Notes under the pieces: model-generated
The model's database searches: none
The model's input: the letters and a program-made list of their open reading frames with translations, nothing else
What the model was told of the DNA's origin: nothing
Shown: piece by piece, positions 5,551 to 64,000 of the stretch
How positions within the stretch are numbered: the stretch's first letter is position 1
Layout: every line of letters begins with the position of its first letter
Sequence record: OM386667.1
From: Escherichia phage vB_EcoM_REC
DNA: 64,000 nucleotides
Direction: 5' to 3' (one strand)
Program-made: the position numbers and the translations under genes

Positions 5551-8223
5551 ATGTTTCCAATTCCAATATTTACTATTATGACCAGCACTGGTGTCGTTCC
5601 TCTGCCAGCAGGTATTGTTAAAAAAGTAATCACTCTAGATTACCCAGATAATGCTGGCAATTCTAATAGCAGTTTAGCAATTTTGCTTAATGATGGTAGA
5701 TTGTTTACTCAAGGCGCAAACCTTTTTGGTGAGATTGCAGATGGAACTCGTAGTGCACGATTCAATAATTTCCACTTAGCTTCTACTGTAGTAGCGGATG
5801 TGTTTACCGCAGATCGTTGTTTTGTTATTAAAACTAACAGTGGGGGATGGCAATATTCAGGATTGACAGCAGGGTTGGTAGGATCTATAGCAGCAGGTGG
5901 TACGGATGCATGTGTAACTACTTGGACCAGCTTTCCATCTGTAATAACAGGGACTATCTCTTTAGCCAATCTTAAAGAGGTTAAGGGAGGATATAACAAC
6001 ACTCTCTGGTTGATGAATAGTGGTGTTCTTTATGGATCAGGTCAAAACACAGTAGGCAGTTTAGGTGCAAGTACTACTAACGAAGTTTCTACTCCTCGTC
6101 AGATAACAAGTGCAGCAGTTGCTTTTGATGCAGGTTACAACCAATGCTCTTATGTCAACAATGTGGGAACCTTGCGTGTTTGTGGGGCTAGTAAAGGTTT
6201 AGCAGGTAATAATAACACAACAACAGCTTTTGTCAATGCCAAGATATCCGCTACTGAAACAGTGTATGTCAAAGATTACATCAATACAGTTTCCCAGACA
6301 ATAGTTGTAGGAGATACCTCCGGTGGCACGGGTACAGTAAACTACTTATATGTTAGATCTAATACAGAAACAACCTACACTAAACTGGACACCTTTGCAG
6401 CAGGTTTCTCAACATGGAAATTTCCACCAAGCCGCCACTCTTTTTTCGTTGGGATCAATAATTCCTTGTGGGCTATTGGTAAGAACTACACTGCAAACTT
6501 AGGTTTGGGGTATGATTCTGCGAGCGGAGATCCACTCCAAGTGGGAAAACCAGTTAAACCTGAAGGAGTGGGTTCCTGGGATATAAACAAGCTCACAAGC
6601 GTTCATACACTGAATATGGATGTTACTAACCAATTAGGTTATCAAGGAACCTTTTTCGTTTATAATGGAGATATGTATTATTCAGGTATTTGGAAAGATG
6701 GGAAAGCCTCGTATCTGTTCAATAGTGGTCTAAACTATAATAAATTCACACCAATAGCAAGCTCCGTGATTACAGGGGATGTTCTGGCAACTGGCTTAAC
6801 TACAGATTCTTTAGGAATTTGTATTGTAGGTGGAACTAAACAGTTGACACATTCTGTTAGCCCAGAAGGAGGTAAACTTTTCAATATTAAATACACTTCT
6901 TCTGCCCCTGCAAACATGACAATATCATCTACTGGTTTAATGACTTTCCATGCAGAAGGTGGTTTTGATGCAGGTATGACAGCCTTAAACGCTGAAGGAA
7001 CAATTTTATCAGATACCTCTGGAGGATATGCTTCAACATTGAGTGTTTACACCCCTAGCTTATCTGCGATGGATGTAGGAACAACACAAACAATGGTAGC
7101 AGAAATAACACCAACAGGAGCAGCAAGCTTACCTGATATGGTTGTTGAGTATACAACTACAGATCCTAATGTTGCTACAGTAGATCCTACAACTGGTGTA
7201 ATAACTGGTGTTGGTGATGGTGGTTGTAGGATTGGTTGCACAGCTACGTATCAAGGTGTTGTTACCGCTTCTGATAGTTCTTATTTAACGGTGAATGCTG
7301 TTGCGGGAAAGGAGTTAGCTCCATCTCCGAGTAGTAGTTTAACGGTTCTAAACGGATATTTCAACCACTCGGCAGATGGGGCAATTACGTTCCCAACTTT
7401 ATCGGGTACTGTTACACCAGCTAACTTTGTAGTTAAGGTGGATGACGTTGTAGTTCCTTCAAGTAAAGTAATATTTAGAAACAAAGCTTTCTCTACAGTG
7501 GATAGTTATCCAGCAGGAGAATATAGACTGGCTATTGAATTTGCAAGTGCTTCAGTAGTTAATAGTGTGGAAGTGTCTATGGAAGCAAACCCAAGTCTTT
7601 TAGAACTTTGGGGCGGTAATAGAATCAGTTATTCTACAAGCCCAGCCTCACAATTCTTAAAAGGTTGTGCTAACTTAAGACGAATAACTTCTGATTGTTT
7701 TAGTAACACATCTTACACCGGAACATCTATAAGCGGTATCTTCTCTGGCTGCACAAGTTTGACAGCTATCCCTGAAGGATTATTCAGTGATGCTTTATTT
7801 CCTTCAATGACAACAATGTCAAGCACGTTTGAAGGTTGTACATCTTTAACATCTATTCCTTCAGATTTATTTAAGAATCTGTCAAAAGTTACAAGATATT
7901 CTTACACCTTTAAAGATTGCACCTCTCTTGCAGAAGTTCCAGCAGGAATGTTTGATAATATTCCAACGAAAGTGACCTCTTTAACAGCTACATTCCAAGG
8001 TTGTTTAGGACTTACAGATTTTAATAAGATCTTTAATGACAACCCAGGGTTAACTGTTTGTGGTAAACGTGGAGCATTATCTTCTTTCTTTAGTGGATGC
8101 ACAAATCTTACAGGAACAGGAACAACATTAACAAATACATTAGGCGGAGTAGCTAATAGTTACCTATTCAGGTATTGCACAAAACTTTCTGATTATAACA
8201 ACATTCCTTCCGGTTATAAATAA
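5551..8223 (+). CDS. tail fibre / adhesin-like protein with Ig-like (Big_2-type) segment and C-terminal BspA-type leucine-rich repeats
   Basis: 890 aa; segment DVGTTQTMVAEITPTGAASLPDMVVEYTTTDPNVATVDPTTGVITGVGDGG resembles bacterial Ig-like domains; C-terminus has repeated F.GCTSLT.IP..LF units. Confidence 0.5.
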   Translation: MFPIPIFTIMTSTGVVPLPAGIVKKVITLDYPDNAGNSNSSLAILLNDGRLFTQGANLFGEIADGTRSARFNNFHLASTVVADVFTADRCFVIKTNSGGWQYSGLTAGLVGSIAAGGTDACVTTWTSFPSVITGTISLANLKEVKGGYNNTLWLMNSGVLYGSGQNTVGSLGASTTNEVSTPRQITSAAVAFDAGYNQCSYVNNVGTLRVCGASKGLAGNNNTTTAFVNAKISATETVYVKDYINTVSQTIVVGDTSGGTGTVNYLYVRSNTETTYTKLDTFAAGFSTWKFPPSRHSFFVGINNSLWAIGKNYTANLGLGYDSASGDPLQVGKPVKPEGVGSWDINKLTSVHTLNMDVTNQLGYQGTFFVYNGDMYYSGIWKDGKASYLFNSGLNYNKFTPIASSVITGDVLATGLTTDSLGICIVGGTKQLTHSVSPEGGKLFNIKYTSSAPANMTISSTGLMTFHAEGGFDAGMTALNAEGTILSDTSGGYASTLSVYTPSLSAMDVGTTQTMVAEITPTGAASLPDMVVEYTTTDPNVATVDPTTGVITGVGDGGCRIGCTATYQGVVTASDSSYLTVNAVAGKELAPSPSSSLTVLNGYFNHSADGAITFPTLSGTVTPANFVVKVDDVVVPSSKVIFRNKAFSTVDSYPAGEYRLAIEFASASVVNSVEVSMEANPSLLELWGGNRISYSTSPASQFLKGCANLRRITSDCFSNTSYTGTSISGIFSGCTSLTAIPEGLFSDALFPSMTTMSSTFEGCTSLTSIPSDLFKNLSKVTRYSYTFKDCTSLAEVPAGMFDNIPTKVTSLTATFQGCLGLTDFNKIFNDNPGLTVCGKRGALSSFFSGCTNLTGTGTTLTNTLGGVANSYLFRYCTKLSDYNNIPSGYK

Positions 8224-9183: not shown

Positions 9184-9576
9184 TTACATTAATTTTGCAC
9201 AGAAAGAGCGGAGTCTTTCCATATCATCTTGCTCTAACAGGTATTTACCTTTACCTATTCCAACTCCAATTTCACCGTTAGGGAAATGAACTATTTGCAC
9301 TGGAAAACCTCCGAGTTTAATTGTGGCAGCTTTGCCTTCTTCGTCTATAACGTTTCGGATTGTATCTTGCAGTGAAATGAATTCTTTGTTTGTAACAGTG
9401 GCTTCAATTATTTCAGAGGTTTCAACACGAGCCGTTAGCTTCTTGTCTCCACCTTGAATAATCAAAATTTGAAAATAAAAAGAGTTGTCAAGACCTACAA
9501 CATTTTTCTCAACTAGTGTCAAACTGGTATAATTTCCATAAACAGTTTCAACAGCTATTTTAGAACGTTCAGTCAT
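9184..9576 (-). CDS. hypothetical protein
   Basis: 130 aa ORF in the co-directional replication block, tight spacing to neighbours. Confidence 0.4.
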   Translation of the reverse strand: MTERSKIAVETVYGNYTSLTLVEKNVVGLDNSFYFQILIIQGGDKKLTARVETSEIIEATVTNKEFISLQDTIRNVIDEEGKAATIKLGGFPVQIVHFPNGEIGVGIGKGKYLLEQDDMERLRSFCAKLM

Positions 9577-9621
9577 TGAATGCTATCCTATCATAAAATG
9601 TTTAATATTGTCAAGCTTTAA

Positions 9622-10215
9622 TTACCAAGGAATATCTTCTTCTTCCAATTTGGTATCTACTTGAGGTGGACGTGGAACCTTAACCTCTTTAACAAAACGA
9701 AGATATGGAAAACGTGTAGCGATTTTAATAACATGTTTGGCATCTTCTCTAACATCTTTGTGCAAGAAGCAGATCCCTGTTTCCAAAGTTGTTTCAAAAT
9801 CTTTAGAGTAATAACAATCCTTTCCATCAAATGCAGCCTGGCAGATGGACAGATCAAACTCATTCAGAAAGGTTGTCATTACATTTGGGTCCATAATCAT
9901 AAGGTTGCAAAGCTGACCGTCACGTTCAAATTCAAAAACGTGTTTAAGACCAGTAACACCCTCGTAGTTATCAGAAGCCTCTTTGTTTCCTAGCTTACGA
10001 ACATTAGTTCCCATTAAAGCAGATGCAATTAGTTCTTGTATTTGCTCTTCTGATCGATGTGCAGGAAGTGACGTATAGAAATCCAGATCACGTCCAGCAA
10101 TATCAAGAATACGCCAATCACGAACAGCACCGCCAGCCAAGACAGAATTAGGATCAGCGATCTTTAAGACAGTAAGAATTTCTTTGGCAATGTTGATTTG
10201 TTTTGATTTAGTCAT
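9622..10215 (-). CDS. minimal nucleotidyltransferase (Pol-beta superfamily) with SSB-tip-like C-terminus
   Basis: 197 aa; GGAVRDWRILDIAGRDLDF resembles the GGxVRD...DxD head motif of CCA-adding/poly(A) polymerase-type nucleotidyltransferases; ends LEEEDIPW. Confidence 0.45.
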   Translation of the reverse strand: MTKSKQINIAKEILTVLKIADPNSVLAGGAVRDWRILDIAGRDLDFYTSLPAHRSEEQIQELIASALMGTNVRKLGNKEASDNYEGVTGLKHVFEFERDGQLCNLMIMDPNVMTTFLNEFDLSICQAAFDGKDCYYSKDFETTLETGICFLHKDVREDAKHVIKIATRFPYLRFVKEVKVPRPPQVDTKLEEEDIPW

Positions 10216-10426
10216 TGATACGCTCCACAGTTACTTTAACAATATCGTCCATATTAATCTCATCTCCCAAGACTTCAATAACACCTTCCTCATAAAGTCG
10301 AGCACATTCTTCCCATACTTCTGCTTCCGTCATTCCACCTTCAATCTTATTTGCAAGACCTTTAATAACATCTTCATTTTGTTCATCAATAAGAATTGAA
10401 ACATTAAAGCTCACTAGTTTACGCAT
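10208..10426 (-). CDS. hypothetical acidic protein
   Basis: 72 aa ORF overlapping the upstream stop by 8 bp. Confidence 0.35.
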   Translation of the reverse strand: MRKLVSFNVSILIDEQNEDVIKGLANKIEGGMTEAEVWEECARLYEEGVIEVLGDEINMDDIVKVTVERIND

Positions 10427-10603
10427 TGTTTTCTCCTTATACCTCTAAACGGAAAGTTTCTTTAGATACAAAATCGTATCCACCTTTTTCAAGCCAGTCA
10501 TTGTAAACCTCATCAGCTTGAGACTCTATCATAAAATACCGAGTGGTAATTTCGTCTCCGACAATACGCACAATTTTATAGCAAATCATGATACCATTTC
10601 CCA

Positions 10604-10795
10604 TTAATCTTCCTCCAGATCAATTTCATTATAGCAATGTATGCAGTAGCCATCGTTGTGCATATGTTGTTCATAAGACATATCTTTACCACAAGACCAA
10701 CAACGAATATCGCCATCGTCCCATTCACGTTCTTCTTCGCCTTCAAATGCATCTGGTAGGTAAGGCATACCAAGACAATCTAAATCGTAATGCAT
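10604..10795 (-). CDS. small Cys-rich (zinc-ribbon-like) protein
   Basis: start moved to the internal ATG at 10795 preceded by AGGAGGA; CWSCG...CIHC pairs; the longer track ORF would overlap the polymerase. Confidence 0.35.
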   Translation of the reverse strand: MHYDLDCLGMPYLPDAFEGEEEREWDDGDIRCWSCGKDMSYEQHMHNDGYCIHCYNEIDLEED

Positions 10796-10844
10796 ATCTC
10801 CTCCTATAAAGGGGCAGAAGCCCCTTATAAAACAATATGTTAGA

Positions 10845-13800
10845 TCAATGACAGGATGCCCAGGAATTACCCACGTCATATCCGGCAGTAAGCTGAACGT
10901 TAAGATTGTAAAATTCTCCAGCCTTAGTAACAGCTAAAGCAGCAAGTTCACCTGCCCGACTATAAGCTGTAAACCATCCACCTTTGGGAGATTCATGAAT
11001 GTTAGCCCAAATTTGCCCTGTCTCTTTTTCCTTATTATGCTTCCATTCTTCAACTTTAGCAAGGCATTCTTTATCAATTTTCTTTTGTTCTTCAGGATCG
11101 TCTACTTTCTTCCAACCTAATGATTCAGGTGAAAACCATTTGAATTCTACAAGGTTACGAGAAACTTCAAGCTGGGCTTCATCGTGGTATGCAATCATTT
11201 GTTGCACGAAGTCTTTATTCTTCCAGTCATCTTTAAAGAAGTCAACACTTAGTCCTTCTTCTTCGATCATATCGTCATAAATAACCATTGCACGTTTAGC
11301 ACAGATAACCCCACCACTTTGGAACAGAGAGTTAAGAATCGCGTGAGCAGAACGAGTAGGAACCTTACGACCGTCAATACCCAAAACATACTGTTTACCA
11401 GTCTTAACCCAGAAATCGTTTAAACGTTCTTTAAGACGCGCCAGTGGGAATGCAGCTTCCCAGAAAGCATCGAACACCAGTTGCCCTGTAAACTTATCGC
11501 TACCAATTGTTTTAGCAACCTTGTCGGCTTGTGCACCATAGGTAATACCATACTTAACAGATTTAGCAGGACTACGTTCAAATTTACGTCCAATAGTTTC
11601 AGTGATACGTTTTGCCATCATGGTATGAACATCGTTAGGCTTCTCTAACAAGAGAGCGTTACAGTATTCATGAGGCTCCGGTTCGTAGCGCCAACAGTTT
11701 CCTGTGATGGTAATGCAGTCTTTCTGACGCATGACCCACGTACCAAGTTCTGTTTGTGGACACCAAACATCCTCTACACCCCACTCTTCAATAGTCAAAC
11801 TTTGAACAGGAATGTGAGAGCGGTTAGCCAATGTTACCACTTTTACTTTCTGCTCTTTTGTATTGAAAGCTACAGAGATATTGCCTCCATGCACCAGGTA
11901 CGAGGCAGTTAAAGCTGCTTCAAAAAGTTCACCTGGGTTCTGCGCCCAACGCCAAACAGGTTTTTGTTTATGTTCATGCCAGTAACCATCTGCAATCAAG
12001 AAACCTTCCAAGAAAGCTACACGCTCGGCATGAGACATATTAACTACACGCTCTACCCACGGAACATCCCATTTACCTTGTTGAACAGAAGTTAAACTAT
12101 TTACCTGATCTTGTTCCATGTTAAATGGAGCATTACAAATAATATTATCTCCTGTGCAAAGCTCGGCAGTTGTTCTGACTTTAGGCACATAAGTATTCCC
12201 TTTACTACGGGTATTAACATACCAACGGTGATCTGCTGTTGCACGGTAAGTGTGTGATTTCCCTTTAATCTCAAACGTCTTACTATTTTTATAGAAGACC
12301 TTACCTTTTACTTTAGTCCATTCTTTCAGACCTGTTTCAGCATTGTACCCTAAAATCTCATCCCCTTCCTTCAGGTCGTGATATCCTACCCAACCTTTAC
12401 GAGTCAAAGCTTGAGCATCCATCGGCACACAGTAATGTGATTCAATTTTTGCTTCCAAAGAGTCGAAGTCGTAGCCGATCTGGAAGTATTTAGGAACCTC
12501 TACACCAAACAAGTTACGCATCTCCCATCCAAACAAAGATGTGACACGAGGAATATTAGCTACAGATCTATGTTTCATACGAGAGGTTGCAGCATCACAT
12601 GTAGCGGCTGGTGTAGGAATACGCCCATCCGCCCTTACTGCGGCTAAGAAACCTTTATCGTATTCTTGATCTTCTTCATCTTCTTCCCAATCAGCACCGC
12701 CACCTAAAATAGAGTTCCTACGATGCTTATACGTTAAGTATTCTACAATCTGTGTAGCATAAGGAAATTTCTCACCCAAAGCTTGCAGGTTAGGACAAAT
12801 TTCTTTTTCCTGACCTTTGGTAAAACATGGGTTAGTCAATACTTTAAGACCGCGACCTTTACCTTTTGCTATACGCTCTTGAATCTTCCTTTCCAAAGTT
12901 TCCGGTGTGCACTCCAGATGATCACAACGATCCTGACAAAAATTAGAAGATAGAGTTTGCTCAACGTAAGCTCTAATACCTTTCTGAAGTTCTTCCTCGC
13001 TCTTTTTAATTTTGGTGCCAGATTTAAGCGTCAAGTCTTTATCTTTATATTCAGACGGTACCCAACCTAATCCTACGAGCCAGTTTTTAATATGGGTTGT
13101 ATCGTTCAATGTTGCAGGGATGTTAGGATCACATAGAGGCTCATCTGCTGCAACTGGCAGTTTCCACTCTTTCCCCCACATAACTAACCACCAATCGCCA
13201 TCCCTCTCTTCCAAATGACCATCATGTTTCTTAGCAAAATTGATCATATGGTTAGTTGGCTCTAAGTTCTTTTTAATTTGCAACTTAGGTGGAATAAAAG
13301 CCTTAAGATAACCTTTTGTTGCTGGTTTAGGTGGCAAAATAGGCTCAACGAGTAAACGAAGACGCTCCATTTCTGCATCCAAAAAAGCAAGGTTCTCTTC
13401 TGCTTGCTTCATGTTAAAAGCAAACCCACGGTGTTCCTGGCGTGTAATAATGTCTGCTACACGTTGTTCAAGTTCAAATGGACCTTCCCATTTATCATAA
13501 TCGCCCCATTCTTCCATAAGGTAATTATATACGCTCGTATTGGCTTTGTTGTCATAGATACAGTAATAAAGCATATCCGCAGCAAAAGTCTTAAATCGAT
13601 CTTCTTCTGGAATCTCTTTACGGAAATCTATTTTTACATCACCACCTGCTTTTCGAGAAAGTGCTGCCAAGCTATGTCCTGATTTGCCCTCAATCTTTCG
13701 ATCTGGGTTTAACACTTTACTCAAAATCAAGGAGTCAATAAGTTTTACCTTATTTTTGCCCCACGTATTATATTTAACACTGTAATCTAATCCATAAAAC

Positions 13801-14177
13801 AGTTTTGTAGCCAACCAGTCGTAGTTGATACCGTTGTGAGCCACAGCCATTTCAACCAGATATTCAGGCTTGTCTTTAAAATAACCTTCATGATTAATAA
13901 AATCTGGGAAATCTTTTAGTTGAAAATGTGTGTAATCTTGCGCCACATACTCTTTAAGAACATATGTGTATTTACCATCTGACTCTTCATAAGGACGCCC
14001 ATCAAAGATGTATTTAGGGCCATCGTGGAAAGCTACTATTTCTCCTGTTTCATGGTTCTCTAAGACAATACAGTGCATTTGAAATGTGTCTTTGAGACGA
14101 TAAGGACTAGCTAAATAATCAATAGTGTCATTATTCAACAATCCGTTTGCTTCAATATCCCATGTAAACTTACTCAC
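10845..14177 (-). CDS. family A DNA polymerase (T7 gp5-like) with 3-prime to 5-prime exonuclease domain, interrupted by an intein
   Basis: 1110 aa; N-terminal FTWDIEANGLL (exo I, cf. T7 MIVSDIEANALL), DFDSLEAKI (motif A), KYGITYGAQADKVAK (motif B), C-terminal GNSWASCH (cf. T7 GPNWAICH). Confidence 0.9.
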   Translation of the reverse strand: MSKFTWDIEANGLLNNDTIDYLASPYRLKDTFQMHCIVLENHETGEIVAFHDGPKYIFDGRPYEESDGKYTYVLKEYVAQDYTHFQLKDFPDFINHEGYFKDKPEYLVEMAVAHNGINYDWLATKLFYGLDYSVKYNTWGKNKVKLIDSLILSKVLNPDRKIEGKSGHSLAALSRKAGGDVKIDFRKEIPEEDRFKTFAADMLYYCIYDNKANTSVYNYLMEEWGDYDKWEGPFELEQRVADIITRQEHRGFAFNMKQAEENLAFLDAEMERLRLLVEPILPPKPATKGYLKAFIPPKLQIKKNLEPTNHMINFAKKHDGHLEERDGDWWLVMWGKEWKLPVAADEPLCDPNIPATLNDTTHIKNWLVGLGWVPSEYKDKDLTLKSGTKIKKSEEELQKGIRAYVEQTLSSNFCQDRCDHLECTPETLERKIQERIAKGKGRGLKVLTNPCFTKGQEKEICPNLQALGEKFPYATQIVEYLTYKHRRNSILGGGADWEEDEEDQEYDKGFLAAVRADGRIPTPAATCDAATSRMKHRSVANIPRVTSLFGWEMRNLFGVEVPKYFQIGYDFDSLEAKIESHYCVPMDAQALTRKGWVGYHDLKEGDEILGYNAETGLKEWTKVKGKVFYKNSKTFEIKGKSHTYRATADHRWYVNTRSKGNTYVPKVRTTAELCTGDNIICNAPFNMEQDQVNSLTSVQQGKWDVPWVERVVNMSHAERVAFLEGFLIADGYWHEHKQKPVWRWAQNPGELFEAALTASYLVHGGNISVAFNTKEQKVKVVTLANRSHIPVQSLTIEEWGVEDVWCPQTELGTWVMRQKDCITITGNCWRYEPEPHEYCNALLLEKPNDVHTMMAKRITETIGRKFERSPAKSVKYGITYGAQADKVAKTIGSDKFTGQLVFDAFWEAAFPLARLKERLNDFWVKTGKQYVLGIDGRKVPTRSAHAILNSLFQSGGVICAKRAMVIYDDMIEEEGLSVDFFKDDWKNKDFVQQMIAYHDEAQLEVSRNLVEFKWFSPESLGWKKVDDPEEQKKIDKECLAKVEEWKHNKEKETGQIWANIHESPKGGWFTAYSRAGELAALAVTKAGEFYNLNVQLTAGYDVGNSWASCH
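11697..12431 (-). mobile_element. intein with LAGLIDADG homing-endonuclease domain inserted between polymerase motifs A and B
   Basis: residues 583-827: begins CVPMDAQAL, contains TADHRWYV (block B T..H), FLEGFLIADGYW (LAGLIDADG), ends ...CITITGN followed by Cys +1; flanking extein sequence aligns with T7 polymerase. Confidence 0.6.
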
Positions 14178-44331: not shown

Positions 44332-44625
44332 ATGATGAACATTACTTTAGCAACTAAGAATATTTCTGAGACAATTAACGGTTTTGGTGTCATTGTAGCC
44401 TTACACGGTAACAACGAGAAATGGTTGGCTTCTTTTGAAGAGGATCGTCAGCACAACATTATTTTAGATGCTCCTATAAAAGTTATGCATATCGTTGGTG
44501 AAAGCAAAGTGCTCACTTCCTCCCGTTCAAAAGAACAAATTACAAATGAATTAGTAAAACTGCTTGACAATGTTCTTAACATGTTTGATAATGCACCCAT
44601 CGATACAAAACGTGTCTTAATGTGA
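44332..44625 (+). CDS. hypothetical protein
   Basis: 97 aa ORF with RBS. Confidence 0.4.
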   Translation: MMNITLATKNISETINGFGVIVALHGNNEKWLASFEEDRQHNIILDAPIKVMHIVGESKVLTSSRSKEQITNELVKLLDNVLNMFDNAPIDTKRVLM

Positions 44626-49837: not shown

Positions 49838-50017
49838 ATGGCACGTTTAGCAGATCATGAAATCTTTAAACCTATTCTGAACCACTATGATGAACTTAAA
49901 GCAGTGTTGGATTGTTATAGAGAGGATGAAGAACGTTTGGAAGTCAATCTTAAGATAGTTCTGATGAAAGCTTTTCAAGACGGGCAAGCTAAAGTTTTAG
50001 AAGGCATGAAAAAATGA
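49838..50017 (+). CDS. hypothetical small protein
   Basis: ATG at 49838 preceded by AAAGGAGAAACT. Confidence 0.35.
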   Translation: MARLADHEIFKPILNHYDELKAVLDCYREDEERLEVNLKIVLMKAFQDGQAKVLEGMKK

Positions 50018-50556
50018 GAATAACTGATGAATATGTATTCTTCTTTTCACATAAAGATGTGTTTAGTAATTGGTATATTGCACCCTTTACAGAAACTGAA
50101 CCAGGTTACAATGAGACTTTCTGTTGTGTTGAGCAATATATGATGTGGCGTAAGGCTTTGCTGTTCAAGGATCATGCGATTGCAGCAGCTATCCTTGATC
50201 ACTCAACTATACGTGACAACGAGAGGAAACAAGCATACTACAAACGTATGGGTCGAGCGGTATCTGGTTTTAATAATGATATGTGGGAAGAGAACCGTGA
50301 GCGTATTGTTATGCGAGGCTTATGCTTGAAATATGTACAGAATCCAGATTTGTATGCAGACTTACACCTTTACCAATACAAAACGTTTGTTGAAGCAAGT
50401 CCTTACGATAAGGTTTACGGTATTGGAATGGGAATGTATGAACCAGGGGTGCTAAACCCTGCTACCTGGAAAGGGCAGAATCTTTTAGGCAAATATCATA
50501 ATAAACTGATCGAAATACTTTTCCCAGACAAAATACCGCAAAGACGATATTTGTGA
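50014..50556 (+). CDS. NADAR-domain protein (YbiA/DUF1768 family)
   Basis: 180 aa; FSNWYIAPFT, CVEQYMMWRKALLF, KYVQNPDLYADL, YDKVYGIGMG and GQNLLGKYHNKL follow the conserved NADAR blocks. Confidence 0.7.
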   Translation: MRITDEYVFFFSHKDVFSNWYIAPFTETEPGYNETFCCVEQYMMWRKALLFKDHAIAAAILDHSTIRDNERKQAYYKRMGRAVSGFNNDMWEENRERIVMRGLCLKYVQNPDLYADLHLYQYKTFVEASPYDKVYGIGMGMYEPGVLNPATWKGQNLLGKYHNKLIEILFPDKIPQRRYL

Positions 50557-50611
50557 TATTTTAACTTTTTTCATTTTTAGAACAAAGGCGTCACTTTGTA
50601 GCACAGAAATA

Positions 50612-50650
50612 AGGCTCCTACAGCACCGTAGAGAGCCTGTTATTTTGTCC
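50612..50650 (+). terminator. rho-independent terminator ending the 44.3-50.6 kb unit
   Basis: AGGCTCCTAC-agcacc-GTAGAGAGCCT (one bulge) followed by GTTATTTTG. Confidence 0.6.
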
Positions 50651-50798
50651 TATACAAACCCTTGTCTTTTTCAGTTTGCATCACTAGGATTCGATCTGAG
50701 TGGGTTCCTGAAGGTTTACCAATAAGATTAAAGGTTATATCAAATTCCCACTATCTTTTATCTCAAAAATCCCTCAAATTATTTAAACTTTTTAAGAA

Positions 50799-50984
50799 TT
50801 TACAAAAGTGAAAGTTGAAAACCAAAATTTAAAGTTTAGGAAAATTATCTTAAAATGTTAGATACAAAACAAAACTCAAAAGTCAAGGAAAATTTTAAAA
50901 ATTTTGCGCGCCCACAGTATTTAAAGTTTTTTTGCTTTTACAAAAATGAAAGTACAAAAGCAAAATTTAAAGTTTACAAAAATT
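50799..50984. repeat. AT-rich region with two 48-bp imperfect direct repeats and AAAGTT-type submotifs
   Basis: 50799-50846 TTTACAAAAGTGAAAGTTGAAAACCAAAATTTAAAGTTTAGGAAAATT versus 50937-50984 TTTACAAAAATGAAAGTACAAAAGCAAAATTTAAAGTTTACAAAAATT. Confidence 0.7.
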
Positions 50985-51000
50985 TTTATGCAGGTGAAAA

Positions 51001-51114
51001 TGAGAAGAGTTCTCATATGGAAATGCAAATGATAATGATTCGCATTTAAGTTTATAAATGAGATTGATTCTTATTTAATAAGGTAAATGACAATCATTCT
51101 CATTTAGAGAATGA
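51001..51114. promoter_or_regulatory. two palindromes (candidate protein-binding sites)
   Basis: TGAGAA-gag-TTCTCA at 51001-51015 and TCATTCTC-attta-GAGAATGA at 51094-51114. Confidence 0.4.
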
Positions 51115-51364
51115 CGCGCAGGGGTGGTGTTTGTCTCGCGCTCCCGTGTCCCCTCGCCATGTAATAAGAATAACAGATCCAACCAGGAAAGCAAGCGATT
51201 ATTTTATCTTTACATTTCTTTACAAATATATAGCACCCAGCCTACCGGCGATCAACCTTCCAACCAGTGCCCCCTGGTATGTTAGCCCCGCCTTTACGCC
51301 GTGGGGTGGCGCTTCCTCTTCTGTATGTAAAACAGTATAAGCCCGATCCCTGGGCTTGTCAAGA

Positions 51365-51631
51365 TTATTTTTTGTTTTCTTGCCAGGATAGGACACCTAA
51401 CCAAAAATACATATCGCCCCGCGCCCCTGGTGGTATCTTGCTTTCCCCGCCGCCACTGCAAGCCCATAGATAACCATTTGCGAACGTATCAAAATGATCT
51501 ATCTCTTCCACCTTATGATCGCCCAGGTTGAGAACGGTTTCAACCTTTAAGCCTGTTGCGCTTGCTACCTGGTGGACCGTGCCGCCTTGCCAGCCCAATG
51601 AGTGCATAAGGTGTAATGTAGTATTTGTCAT
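51365..51631 (-). CDS. hypothetical protein encoded in a GC-rich island, opposite orientation to the early genes
   Basis: 88 aa ORF with ATG at 51631 preceded by AAAGGG; local GC content clearly higher than flanks; weak support. Confidence 0.25.
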   Translation of the reverse strand: MTNTTLHLMHSLGWQGGTVHQVASATGLKVETVLNLGDHKVEEIDHFDTFANGYLWACSGGGESKIPPGARGDMYFWLGVLSWQENKK

Positions 51632-51739
51632 GATATCGCCCTTTCTTTGTTGTGCGCCCTGGTTGGCGCGGTAGAAAGATAATAGCCCTTTTCTTTATAT
51701 ATAGCAAGCAAAAAGAAAATAAAAAAGATTGAAAAATGG

Positions 51740-51796
51740 TTGACGTTAACCAGGCGGCGGCGTAGTATTCATCTTGTAGGGCGGCAATGGTGCCGC
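51740..51796 (+). promoter_or_regulatory. early promoter-leader module (TTGACG-17-TAGTAT plus hairpin GCGGCA-atgg-TGCCGC)
   Basis: -35 51740-51745, -10 51763-51768, hairpin 51781-51796, ATG at 51818. Confidence 0.6.
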
Positions 51797-51817
51797 TCAC
51801 TATTTGGAGTTAAGATC

Positions 51818-52015
51818 ATGGCAACATTGCACATTGTGGCGAAAGCTGGACAAATCAACGTAGTGGTAAACGGTTTTACTGAGTTCAGTCACCCCCAGGA
51901 TGATCATGAAACGGTTTTATCTTTCATTGATTCCCTGTTAGAAATGGGAGTCATTACAGAAGACCAGCACGCTACAAAATGCAAGCGCGTTAATCAAATC
52001 GCAGGAATAGAATAA
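51818..52015 (+). CDS. early small protein
   Basis: 66 aa from ATG 51818 after RBS GGAG; the track ORF starts at a TTG that is the -35 box. Confidence 0.5.
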   Translation: MATLHIVAKAGQINVVVNGFTEFSHPQDDHETVLSFIDSLLEMGVITEDQHATKCKRVNQIAGIE

Positions 52016-52021
52016 AAACTA

Positions 52022-52080
52022 TTGACAACAAACAACAACCTGATAAGATGTATCACATAGGGCGGGAAGTGGTTTCCCGC
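52022..52080 (+). promoter_or_regulatory. early promoter-leader module (TTGACA-16-TAAGAT plus hairpin GCGGGAA...TTCCCGC)
   Basis: -35 52022-52027, -10 52044-52049, hairpin 52062-52080. Confidence 0.6.
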
Positions 52081-52105
52081 TCGTAACAGAAGAGAGATTA
52101 TCATC

Positions 52106-52378
52106 ATGGCATCATATAGCGCAACAATGATCGTAGCTGGCACAACTGGTAAACCTATGAGCGGTGGCGGATCTTTCGCTAATATCAATATTGACGGGCG
52201 TTTATCCCTGGACGCAGCGATCGCTATTGCACGGGAAACATTTAAGAAAGAATGTAATTTCAACAAGCAAGATTATCTCGGTTTCGCTATTGAAAAAACC
52301 GCGCGCTTTGTTGATTATAAAAGCCCGAAAATGGTTGATACTACACTAAAAGCGCAAGATGTAGCGTTTTTGCTTTAA
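52106..52378 (+). CDS. early small protein
   Basis: 90 aa; RBS AGAGAGA. Confidence 0.5.
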   Translation: MASYSATMIVAGTTGKPMSGGGSFANINIDGRLSLDAAIAIARETFKKECNFNKQDYLGFAIEKTARFVDYKSPKMVDTTLKAQDVAFLL

Positions 52379-62060: not shown

Positions 62061-62429
62061 ATGAGCAAATCAGCAATTAAAGCACTTGAAAAAGCACAAG
62101 AAGTGATCGCAACGTCAACCACTGGCGCAAAGGTTAATCTCGTTGGTTATCTGACAGATGAAACTATCCGTAAAAATTGGCGTAATGCTGATTTACTCGC
62201 TTGCTTATTGATTAATAGTGTCGCTAATGCTTTCCAGTGTGAAACAGCCGAGAGCCTGGAGGAAAACTTGTTTGATAATATGGATCAAGCCATTGAAACC
62301 TATATACAATCAAACCTGGATAGCTGGAACAGTAAAACATGGCCCGACAATTTACGCGATACAACTGATCAACTGATCCGCCTTGCCCTGATGGTTGAAC
62401 GCGATAACGTTCACAACCGCACAAAGTAA
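62061..62429 (+). CDS. early protein
   Basis: 122 aa; RBS AAGAGGAAAA. Confidence 0.5.
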   Translation: MSKSAIKALEKAQEVIATSTTGAKVNLVGYLTDETIRKNWRNADLLACLLINSVANAFQCETAESLEENLFDNMDQAIETYIQSNLDSWNSKTWPDNLRDTTDQLIRLALMVERDNVHNRTK

Positions 62430-62564: not shown

Positions 62565-62984
62565 ATGAACATTAAATCAAATAATCCAGCTTACTCCTTC
62601 GATAACGCTTTTTGTCACGGTAGCGCCGCCAAAGGCTTCGAAATCGATGGTAAATTGGTTATCGTGAACGTTGACGGGGAAGAGGTTGCAGTATATCCGG
62701 TAAACGATGTTAAAAGCCGTTTACAATGCCGCATGGATGTTACCGCATATCAGCTTGATCCGATCCGTGTAGTTGCCCTGGTATTAGAGGAAGAGATCAA
62801 AGCAATGCATCACAGTAATAAGTTTATTGGTGACGCGCAGGATAATATGAACGTTTGCCGCCATAAAGTTAATGAAGCACTGAAAGAATGCGGTTTTAAG
62901 GATCTGATGATCAAACGTGATGAAAAATTCCGCTTTCGTAATGACCTGGCAAACCGGATCTACTCAATCTATGAAGCGTTATAA
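62565..62984 (+). CDS. early protein
   Basis: 139 aa from ATG 62565; track ORF starts at an ATG upstream of the promoter. Confidence 0.5.
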   Translation: MNIKSNNPAYSFDNAFCHGSAAKGFEIDGKLVIVNVDGEEVAVYPVNDVKSRLQCRMDVTAYQLDPIRVVALVLEEEIKAMHHSNKFIGDAQDNMNVCRHKVNEALKECGFKDLMIKRDEKFRFRNDLANRIYSIYEAL

Positions 62985-62999
62985 TTGACAACAAAACAA

Positions 63000-63026
63000 G
63001 GGGCGCACCAAGCGCCCTTTCTTTTT
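63000..63026 (+). terminator. rho-independent terminator closing the early array
   Basis: GGGCGC-accaa-GCGCCC followed by TTTCTTTTTG. Confidence 0.7.
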
Positions 63027-63119
63027 GCCCGAACAATGTTGATAGCTTTCGCCTATGAAAAACCGACACAGAACAAAATTGAATAAATCGCGGTATCGAG
63101 CTAATCAACCATTAAACGA

Positions 63120-63560
63120 ATAACCATACCTCCCAGGGTAACAGGCTGTTAGAGAGCCATTTATAACGGTTAAAATCGATCAACAACCAACAACAAACCA
63201 TCAAAAACACCCTTTTACCTCCTTTCTAGTGCAATGATAACCATTATCATCTATACATGATTATATATGCAATATAAGCGCATAACTATAATGTTGATAA
63301 CAGTTCGCAACAACTAACTAACCAACAACCTAAAACAATAAGCAAACTAATCATAATCAAAGGAATAATAGCAAGATGATTGATAACGACAAACAATCAA
63401 ACCATGATGAATACTAAGCAAGATAACGATAACACGACAAAACAACCAACTAACGAACAATAACAAACGAAACCATTAAAATAATAACTATTGCCATAAT
63501 AGTGACTGAATGAAATCATTACAAAACGAATCATTCCCAGGATCATCATTAGCACGCTAT
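63120..63560. other. non-coding A/C-rich, G-depleted tract (CAA/AAC-rich on the plus strand)
   Basis: runs such as AACAACCAACAACAAACCATCAAAAACACC and AAACAACCAACTAACGAACAATAACAAACGAAACC; no ORF of 60 aa or more on the plus strand from 62985 to the window end. Confidence 0.6.
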
Positions 63561-64000
63561 GCCGGACACATAGCGAGCTAATAATAAGCCAACTACACCC
63601 CAACAATCATAACCATCGGTGATGGTTATTTCTTGTTACTGCGTAGCTTGCAATAATTGCAAGCGTAATGACGCTTACACTTATTGCGCTGGCTTATTAT
63701 TAGCATTATATGTAATTACCAAGATCATAACATTAGCGCAATAACAATAATCATTGTAATAATTACAATATGAAATCATTAGCAAGATGAATAATTGCAC
63801 GTAGCAACATGAGCGAATAGCGACAGGTTGCATAGTGTGCACATAGATGTACACGTAGTGTATAAACATACAAGAAAATAAAGGCTAATCTTTTGGGGGC
63901 GAATACTATCGCGTAGCGATATGTTGAGCACCTTCTCTTAAACGTAAATAAAATCAGAAAATTCTTGATTTATTTTAGTTTTTATGTTAATAAACGTTTA

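Follow-up and report, generated by a model that had tools for sequence, protein, structure and literature searches.

The binding site of the host protein Fur is conventionally written either as a 7-1-7 core, TGATAATnATTATCA, or as a 19-mer, GATAATGATAATCATTATC. Phage DNA can come under this host regulator. The stx1 promoter of temperate coliphages, which carries a Fur box, is one instance. A second is the sitABCD cargo operon of lambdoid phages, ahead of which a Fur box has been described (PMC6969025) and which is thereby wired into the host Fur regulon. Both cases are single boxes placed before an identifiable cargo operon in prophages. In contrast, the subject of this work is a multi-box array of Fur type that is free of cargo and belongs to strictly lytic phages. 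It occupies positions 50998-51115 of a 64,000-nucleotide stretch of Escherichia phage vB_EcoM_REC (OM386667.1), hereafter called the window. We describe the array, its conservation and its counterpart in phage T5, and then weigh what it may do.

The 2 kb of the window from 50000 to 52000 are 100% identical to Escherichia phage vB_EcoM_ESCO37, which places the DNA in the genus Phapecoctavirus (Stephanstirmvirinae), lytic myoviruses with genomes of ~150 kb. Other Phapecoctavirus genomes match the same 2 kb at 95-99.8% identity. The array sits at the left edge of the early-gene block, in a gap of ~1.2 kb that lacks consistent gene annotation. A sequence-only reading of this gap had reported AT-rich direct repeats and two palindromes and had proposed either a replication origin or a regulator-binding control region. 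Both palindromes exist as given (TGAGAAgagTTCTCA at 51001-51015 and TCATTCTCatttaGAGAATGA at 51095-51115). That reading overlooked that the two belong to a family of four 21-bp boxes having the consensus AAATGAGAATnATTCTCATTT.

An array of four boxes with Fur-type specificity

The four boxes (Table 1) start at 50998, 51027, 51056 and 51085, a spacing of exactly 29, 29 and 29 bp, and box 4 is followed by an extra GAGAAT half-site at 51107-51112. Their core is the 7-1-7 Fur core with G tolerated at position 4. Compared with TGAKAATnATTMTCA the boxes have one or two mismatches, and they agree with the 19-mer at 12-15 of its 19 positions. When up to two mismatches to the 15-bp core were allowed, these four boxes were the only matches in the window. 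Dinucleotide-shuffled versions of the window (n = 200) had on average 0.025 matches to the box matrix scoring 20 bits or more; the window itself has five. For the local region the corresponding figures are 0.001 (2000 local shuffles) and four. The isolated box listed in Table 1 precedes an ATG at 63377 and sits in ~1 kb of non-coding DNA towards the window's right end; the non-coding regions 50560-51740 and 62900-64000 had no sequence in common except the Fur-like box. An Rfam scan of 50300-52200 (E ≤ 1) returned just a chance miRNA match over the palindromes, and a blastn comparison with 5,426 E. coli genomes told us nothing useful about the box region.

The specificity of the boxes was examined by reciprocal matrix tests. 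In the forward test four 50-kb pieces of E. coli MG1655, with their Fur-regulated promoter regions listed beforehand, were scanned with a matrix made from 18 distinct phage boxes only. Those promoter regions make up about 1% of the 200 kb scanned and contained 10 of the 12 matches above 10 bits: ryhB (23.2 bits), fhuA (20.4), fepB-entC (16.0, 12.9 and 11.8), cirA (15.5), fepA-fes (13.4), fepD-entS (13.0), ryhB-yhhY (11.2) and feoA (10.6), all of them established members of the Fur regulon. The other two matches fell in the map-tff/rpsB intergenic region (20.4 bits; position 44581 of its MG1655 piece) and in the yeiS-preT intergenic region (16.5 bits; position 13861 of its piece); these may be unlisted Fur sites or false positives. 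In the reverse test only seven of those E. coli intergenic regions were given to a palindromic expectation-maximization run; it yielded TGATAATGATAATCATTATCA, the classical Fur box, and the window was scanned with the resulting matrix. This E. coli-only matrix put boxes 2, 1 and 3 at the head of the 64-kb ranking, a second register of box 2 (51030) in fifth place and box 4 in eighth and ninth.

Judged by these scans, the phage boxes have Fur-type sequence specificity, the same as that of the E. coli operators of ryhB, fhuA, fepB-entC and fepA-fes, and we think it quite probable that Fur binds them in vivo. The ryhB site is identical to the right half of box 4, AATCATTCTCATT, and the fhuA site (AATCATTCTCGTT) differs from this half at a single base. 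The phage array also resembles the E. coli operators in that multiple sites are clustered in AT-rich non-coding DNA. It differs from them in belonging to a virulent phage and in consisting of discrete boxes at a fixed 29-bp spacing rather than of overlapping hexamers.

Conservation in two subfamilies and the counterpart in T5

A distant search showed that 51019-51330 can be aligned at ~70% identity far beyond the genus, with Vequintavirinae infecting Salmonella, Klebsiella, Cronobacter, Pectobacterium, Erwinia and Enterobacter. We anchored 21 loci from Stephanstirmvirinae and Vequintavirinae on a conserved block and called boxes at a cut-off of at least 15 bits. Boxes (1-5 per locus) were found at the same place in 19 of the 21 homologous loci, and the distance from the last box to the anchor downstream of it is 150-161 nt, or 202 nt in Av-05. 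Successive spacings are 29, 29 and 29 bp in Phapecoctavirus, 37/38, 29 and 29 in the phiTE-like phages, 29 in Mydovirus and 4MG, and 23, 29 and 24 in Justusliebigvirus; the 29-bp spacing recurs among sequences that are only ~70% identical overall. Single boxes gain or lose quality between close relatives and the array persists. The record of Klebsiella phage vB_Kpn_K45PH128C2 annotates tRNA-Met and tRNA-Ile at 1504-1657, over the boxes and the hairpin that follows them; ARAGORN found no tRNA there or in the window, and these annotations look misplaced.

The close relative Schickermooser (MK373788) has an exact 329-bp direct terminal repeat (1-329 and 150866-151194), given as 328 bp in PMC6563267. 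Boxes of at least 15 bits occur at three places only in this genome: a cluster of four at 137107-137214, a single box at 150185 that is the equivalent of the window's 63232 box, and two in the terminal repeat, one of 27.5 bits at position 74 of the repeat and one of 26.9 bits at position 253. The cluster is 14.0-14.1 kb (9% of the genome) from the right physical end. No box of this strength was found in 3-92 kb of Schickermooser or in 1-50997 of the window, which itself stops ~10 nt short of the equivalent of the first terminal-repeat box. Klebsiella Mydovirus contigs carry a second box group 9.3-10.4 kb to the right of the main cluster, and hence the early-gene block is bracketed by boxes in both subfamilies. 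In three contigs this second group lies at 12622-13386, at 10119-10866 and at 9941-12366, the last contig having two further boxes at ~7.5 kb, and the group includes near-copies of the window's 63232 box and of the Schickermooser terminal-repeat box.

The same 21-bp motif forms a cluster of four to five sites in the unrelated phage T5 (AY587007), at 9472 (25.7 bits), 9507 (17.1), 9530 (11.2), 9576 (33.9) and 9611 (29.2). BLAST aligned 51021-51075 of the window with T5-like siphoviruses at 84-87% identity over ~55 nt, inside their left terminal repeat. In the annotation of T5 Repeat Region 3 these sites go by the names 'direct repeat C copies 1-4' and 'palindromes E, G, I', and the most recent account of the region treats them as repeats and palindromes with no function assigned and no mention of Fur or iron (bioRxiv 10.1101/866236). 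Directly to the right of the cluster (9472-9637) come the 7.9% nick and the calculated shear point of first-step transfer (bioRxiv 10.1101/866236). T5 boxes of at least 15 bits are confined to the terminal repeat, with none in ~101 kb of unique sequence, and in Schickermooser and T5 alike boxes of this strength occur only in non-coding or terminal early regions.

The T5 and window clusters have further traits in common: each occupies an extensive non-coding stretch on which transcription units converge, at a distance from a physical end equal to ~8-9% of the genome, and each is trailed by a G+C-rich hairpin. The differences are also plain. The T5 cluster is inside a 10-kb terminal repeat together with the IRD'/IRC' inverted repeats, whereas the terminal repeat of the window's relative is 329 bp long and 14 kb away; T5 has irregular spacings (35, 23, 46 and 35) in place of the regular 29; and the T5 cluster adjoins DnaA boxes and a perfect LexA box, neither of which is present in the window region. 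The LexA box is T5 'palindrome D' (TACTGTATAAATATACAGTA, 9330-9349), which, like its copy in inverted repeat D (6135-6154), fits the LexA/SOS-box consensus CTGT-N8-ACAG perfectly, as does 1255-1274 of chee24. Hence, LexA-, DnaA- and Fur-type sites stand side by side next to the injection stop signal of T5. The words LexA and SOS are both absent from the 2020 T5 preprint, and a LexA consensus scan of the window found no such box.

Literature searches found nothing that joined 'first step transfer' and 'Fur', nothing relevant on Fur with T5, lytic phages or these subfamilies, and no transcriptome for these phages. A lytic-phage Fur-box array of this kind, or an identity for the T5 elements, was not described in the literature searched.

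Transcription units and AT-rich repeats around the array

Table 1 Features in and around the box array (window positions)
Feature	Position	Strand	Remarks
Fur-like box 1, AAATGAGAAGAGTTCTCATAT	50998-51018		First palindrome; 22.9 bits; rank 2 with E. coli-only matrix
Fur-like box 2, AAATGATAATGATTCGCATTT	51027-51047		30.7 bits; rank 1; 14/19 with classical 19-mer
Fur-like box 3, AAATGAGATTGATTCTTATTT	51056-51076		28.4 bits; rank 3 with E. coli-only matrix
Fur-like box 4, AAATGACAATCATTCTCATTT	51085-51105		31.3 bits; 15/19 with 19-mer; best conserved among relatives
Isolated Fur-like box, CAATGATAACCATTATCATCT	63232-63252		20.5 bits; rank 4 in window with E. coli-only matrix
NADAR-domain gene	stop at 50556	+	Last gene of upstream operon; left neighbour
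Bidirectional intrinsic terminator hairpin	50612-50650	both	RNA fold z = -4.0 (+) and -3.7 (-); U-rich tail on each side
AT-rich direct repeat, copy 1	50775-50846	+	Holds TATTTAAACTTTTT ... TTTACAAAAGTGAAAGT ... CAAAATTTAAAGTTTA
Degenerate middle copy of repeat unit	50863-50896	+	74% match to equivalent parts of the two full copies
AT-rich direct repeat, copy 2	50913-50984	+	59/72 identical to copy 1
Weak sigma-70-like match, TTTACA-17-GAAAAT	50973-51001	+	9/12; -10 overlaps box 1; promoter function putative
Terminator-like hairpin, UCAUUCUCU/AGAGAAUGA plus UUGUCAUUU tail	51093-51115	-	Second palindrome; directly after block A hairpin
Block A, G+C-rich hairpin	51116-51157	-	Just downstream of P(-)1; minus-strand fold z = -2.35, plus-strand +1.43
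P(-)1, sigma-70-like, TTGCTT-16-TATTCT	51167-51194	-	Weak, 7/12 in window
Block B, candidate RNA body	51233-51320	-	Most conserved non-coding block; ~79% mean column identity, 20 sequences
P(-)2, strong promoter, TTGACA-17-TATACT	51334-51362	-	11/12 match
88-aa gene, phrog_19316	51365-51631	-	Sole minus-strand gene of neighbourhood
First rightward early promoter, TTGACG-17-TAGTAT	51740-51768	+	Read from sequence; PHIRE promoter in phAPEC8

The strongest promoter evidence near the array is on the minus strand (Table 1). The hexamers of P(-)2 are kept at 9-12 of 12 positions in 17 loci with a changing spacer, and the Vequintavirinae equivalent of P(-)1 reads TTGCAA-17-TATATT (9/12). On the plus strand the AT-rich repeats hold only weak promoter matches. 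The sequence makes a minus-strand RNA of ~240 nt, from ~51327 to ~51090, a candidate product of a leftward unit. The loop indels of its putative body, block B, are not multiples of three and the block is therefore non-coding; at the candidate 5' end a conserved purine-rich stretch, AGAAGAGGAAG, is followed by no start codon. Folds of the minus strand gave z-scores against shuffles of -2.22 (51330-51200) and -2.35 (51162-51075), whereas plus-strand folds of the same two segments (0.01 and +1.43) were no better than shuffles. RNAalifold on block B gave similar energies for the two strands and just a single compensatory pair, which is AU in 13 sequences and GC in 7. Thus, a structured RNA is suggested mainly by the single-sequence z-scores rather than by covariation. 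Neither the candidate RNA nor block B had a match in Rfam or, by ARAGORN, to a tRNA.

The candidate RNA would end at the array. The G+C-rich hairpin of block A is present in all relatives with lineage-specific pairing, and the terminator-like hairpin that follows it combines the right half of box 4 with the extra GAGAAT half-site. As expected of an intrinsic terminator, this second hairpin has a 9-pair stem and a U-rich tail and lies downstream of conserved promoters; its stem is AU-rich, which leaves the efficiency of termination uncertain. The relatives have equivalent stems of 5-6 bp (read by eye). Box 4 overlaps this minus-strand hairpin, and box 1 overlaps the -10 element of the poorly conserved 9/12 promoter match.

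To the left of the array, the sequence-only reading was right about the AT-rich context, with 23.4% G+C at 50740-50995 compared with a window average of 39.4%, and about the recurring AAAGTT motif, which occurs four times in 300 nt. Its direct repeats are real and in one register, at a spacing of 138, but are not 'near-identical': the best 48-nt block (50799-50846 and 50937-50984) has 42 of 48 identities (87.5%). The repeat extends to 72 nt, 50775-50846 against 50913-50984, with 59 of the 72 positions identical; the best 72-nt self-match in 500 shuffles of 50700-51000 averaged 36.2 and reached at most 44. Given the degenerate copy between the two, the structure is a decayed triple tandem repeat having a unit of ~69 nt. 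VEcB, PVP-SE1 and Av-05 each have three repeat units of 63-79 nt, spaced 67 and 75 nt. The triple-repeat architecture is kept in relatives with a genus-specific sequence, and the AT-rich repeats are part of the same conserved module as the boxes. A 14-mer of the repeats, TATTTAAASTTTTT, was considered as a general late-promoter motif and rejected, there being only three copies in the window, all within 50557-50931.

The hairpin at 50612-50650, which the sequence-only reading had called a terminator, has an annotated terminator as its equivalent in the phAPEC8 record; it closes the upstream plus-strand operon and would stop leftward transcripts too. To the right of the array the 88-aa gene was found in 151 phage records, none of them T5-like. 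The AlphaFold model of its protein has five helices (pLDDT 93) and had no significant match in the PDB. The coding calls at 51129-51631 conflict among records. That of phAPEC8 has a plus-strand open reading frame (ORF), which is split as a 'frameshift' in Schickermooser, and those of ESCO37, tuntematon and VEcB instead annotate the minus-strand 88-aa gene, phrog_19316 being the conserved one. We rejected the phAPEC8 ORF (51129-51470), which is called frameshifted in Schickermooser, is overlapped in its 3' part by the minus-strand gene of other records and spans a block with indels of lengths not divisible by three. Behind the first rightward early promoter small early-type plus-strand genes follow one another in a long series. 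Further to the right an early-promoter family at 52041, 53477, 58093 and 58574 consists of TTGACA, a 15-nt spacer and cTGATAAGATGTATCAcatagggcgg, an extended -10 of the type TGnTAAGAT; at 62273 only the 15-mer is present. These promoters, the 'host dependent promoters' of phAPEC8, surfaced as 3-mismatch matches to the Fur core, yet are a distinct element.

A proposed Fur operator array and its alternatives

The explanation we favor is that 50998-51115 comprises four host Fur operators and one half-site that gate transcription at the boundary of the early region, a proposal drawn from the DNA sequence to which we give an even chance of being correct. Of the two functions offered by the sequence-only reading, the regulator-binding control region is supported by the Fur-type specificity and by a position and spacing conserved across two subfamilies. 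The replication origin is unsupported: the region has no DnaA or IHF consensus and no adjoining initiator-like gene, and the T5 origins were mapped elsewhere. This suggests that the phages link the edge of the early block to host iron status rather than start replication here. We infer both Fur binding and an effect on transcripts, which might come about as follows. The array lies between the AT-rich triple repeat and the 3' end of the putative leftward non-coding RNA unit that would start from the 51362-51334 promoter. When iron is sufficient, dimers of Fe2+-Fur would fill the boxes cooperatively and form a nucleoprotein block. The filled boxes would repress rightward initiation from the repeats and would reinforce the stop of leftward transcription, box 4 being half of the terminator hairpin. 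Upon iron starvation Fur would be released and the region opened.

Several points weigh against this proposal. Natural Fur operators are contiguous hexamer arrays, unlike discrete boxes 29 bp apart. No robustly conserved promoter overlaps the boxes in the window: the 50973-51001 match is not robustly conserved because its -10 degrades in phAPEC8 (GGGAAT in that phage and GAGAAT in tuntematon), and the TTGAAT-18-nnGAAT found around the last box in Vequintavirinae could be just Fur half-sites. The array has no obviously iron-linked gene placed under it, and the Fur-array account leaves the role of the AT-rich repeats unexplained. Finally, T5 is known to degrade host DNA early (bioRxiv 10.64898/2026.04.02.716235), and this, together with boxes placed at the first-step-transfer boundary, means that the role of the motif may not be classical repression.

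Four palindromes beside AT-rich DNA recall the lambda origin, and AT-rich repeats downstream of strong promoters recall those of T7 and T4. A replication origin, with the AT-rich repeats as unwinding element or iterons and the boxes as initiator sites, or alternatively with leftward transcripts from the strong minus-strand promoters priming or activating replication, would make use of the 23% G+C over 256 bp with its tandem repeats (a 72-nt repeat twice plus a degenerate third), of the conserved triple-repeat architecture with its genus-specific sequence and of strong conserved promoters that point into AT-rich DNA. We consider both forms unlikely. The resemblance to the lambda, T7 and T4 origins ends with the AT-rich segment and the palindromes or promoters, as a cognate initiator gene and host origin-factor sites were not found and the palindromes carry Fur specificity. 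Specifically, scans of 50500-51800 found no DnaA or IHF consensus, the neighbors encode a NADAR-domain protein and the 88-aa protein rather than an initiator, helicase loader or primase, and the only switch in GC skew is the one due to the small minus-strand unit. The boxes have the specificity of host Fur, which has no known role at origins. Moreover, T5, which has the same motif cluster, has its replication origins mapped near the genome center and not in the terminal repeat (bioRxiv 10.1101/866236). A binder encoded by the phage and merely Fur-like in specificity, which would make the boxes operators of an autonomous phage switch, could account for a 29-bp regularity that host Fur sites do not usually have, and the small conserved gene adjoining on the opposite strand is a candidate. 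Its 88-aa product, however, has no DNA-binding fold match and is absent from the box-carrying T5-like phages, and since the motif is common to T5-like phages that lack this protein, the cognate factor is more likely a host factor. With two reciprocal matrix tests tying the motif to genuine Fur sites, and three unrelated phage lineages that share Enterobacterales hosts having it in common, we regard a phage binder as quite improbable.

Multicopy Fur boxes titrate Fur, which is the principle of the Fur titration assay (FURTA), and replicated phage genomes with about nine strong boxes each might act likewise as a decoy, de-repressing host iron uptake to supply iron-dependent phage enzymes such as class Ia ribonucleotide reductase. 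The counts are suitable (4 + 1 + 2x2 strong boxes per genome in the relative) and the phage encodes NrdAB. However, a decoy needs no fixed position or spacing, yet both are conserved, and the boxes, instead of being scattered, keep to two non-coding regions. Host de-repression would also be pointless in T5, where host DNA is destroyed early (bioRxiv 10.64898/2026.04.02.716235), and we give titration a slim chance. The T5 parallel itself leads to another reading, in which the cluster marks the inner end of a terminal segment handled separately at infection and bound host proteins help to define or hold that segment, the analogue of the T5 injection-stop region. In favor of this are the position of the T5 cluster (9472-9637), bordered directly on its right by the 7.9% nick and the shear point of first-step transfer, that of the Schickermooser cluster 14.0-14.1 kb (9%) from the right end with more boxes inside the 329-bp terminal repeat, the lack of strong boxes elsewhere in either genome, and the second Mydovirus box group 9.3-10.4 kb to the right. 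Against it, no report was found of two-step DNA entry for Stephanstirmvirinae or Vequintavirinae, a cytoplasmic protein on DNA that has entered cannot easily stop DNA still outside, and the early genes run towards the right end, which is not the orientation expected if transcription drove entry from there; chance could explain the agreement at 8-9%. We hold such an entry device to be a very slim prospect. The same applies to its broader form, argued by analogy from positional parallels only, in which host Fur boxes (in T5 together with LexA and DnaA sites) would mark the inner boundary of the terminal 8-9% carrying the first-expressed genes in unrelated virulent phages, T5-like, rV5-like and phAPEC8-like, with host DNA-binding proteins defining or holding the segment.

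Returning to the proposed host Fur operator array, a conserved and regularly spaced set of Fur boxes in strictly lytic phages that have no iron-related cargo gene is unusual. It gives a concrete candidate identity to the 'direct repeat C / palindrome E-I' elements of T5, catalogued beside the injection stop signal since the 1980s. Should the broader boundary device exist, the T5 palindromes by the injection stop signal would be Fur sites and phAPEC8-like phages would stage their terminal early segment analogously. If Fur binds the boxes, phAPEC8-like and rV5-like virulent coliphages, which are therapy candidates, would read host iron status at the edge of their early region, and the outcome of infection could then depend on the availability of iron in the gut or in infected tissue.

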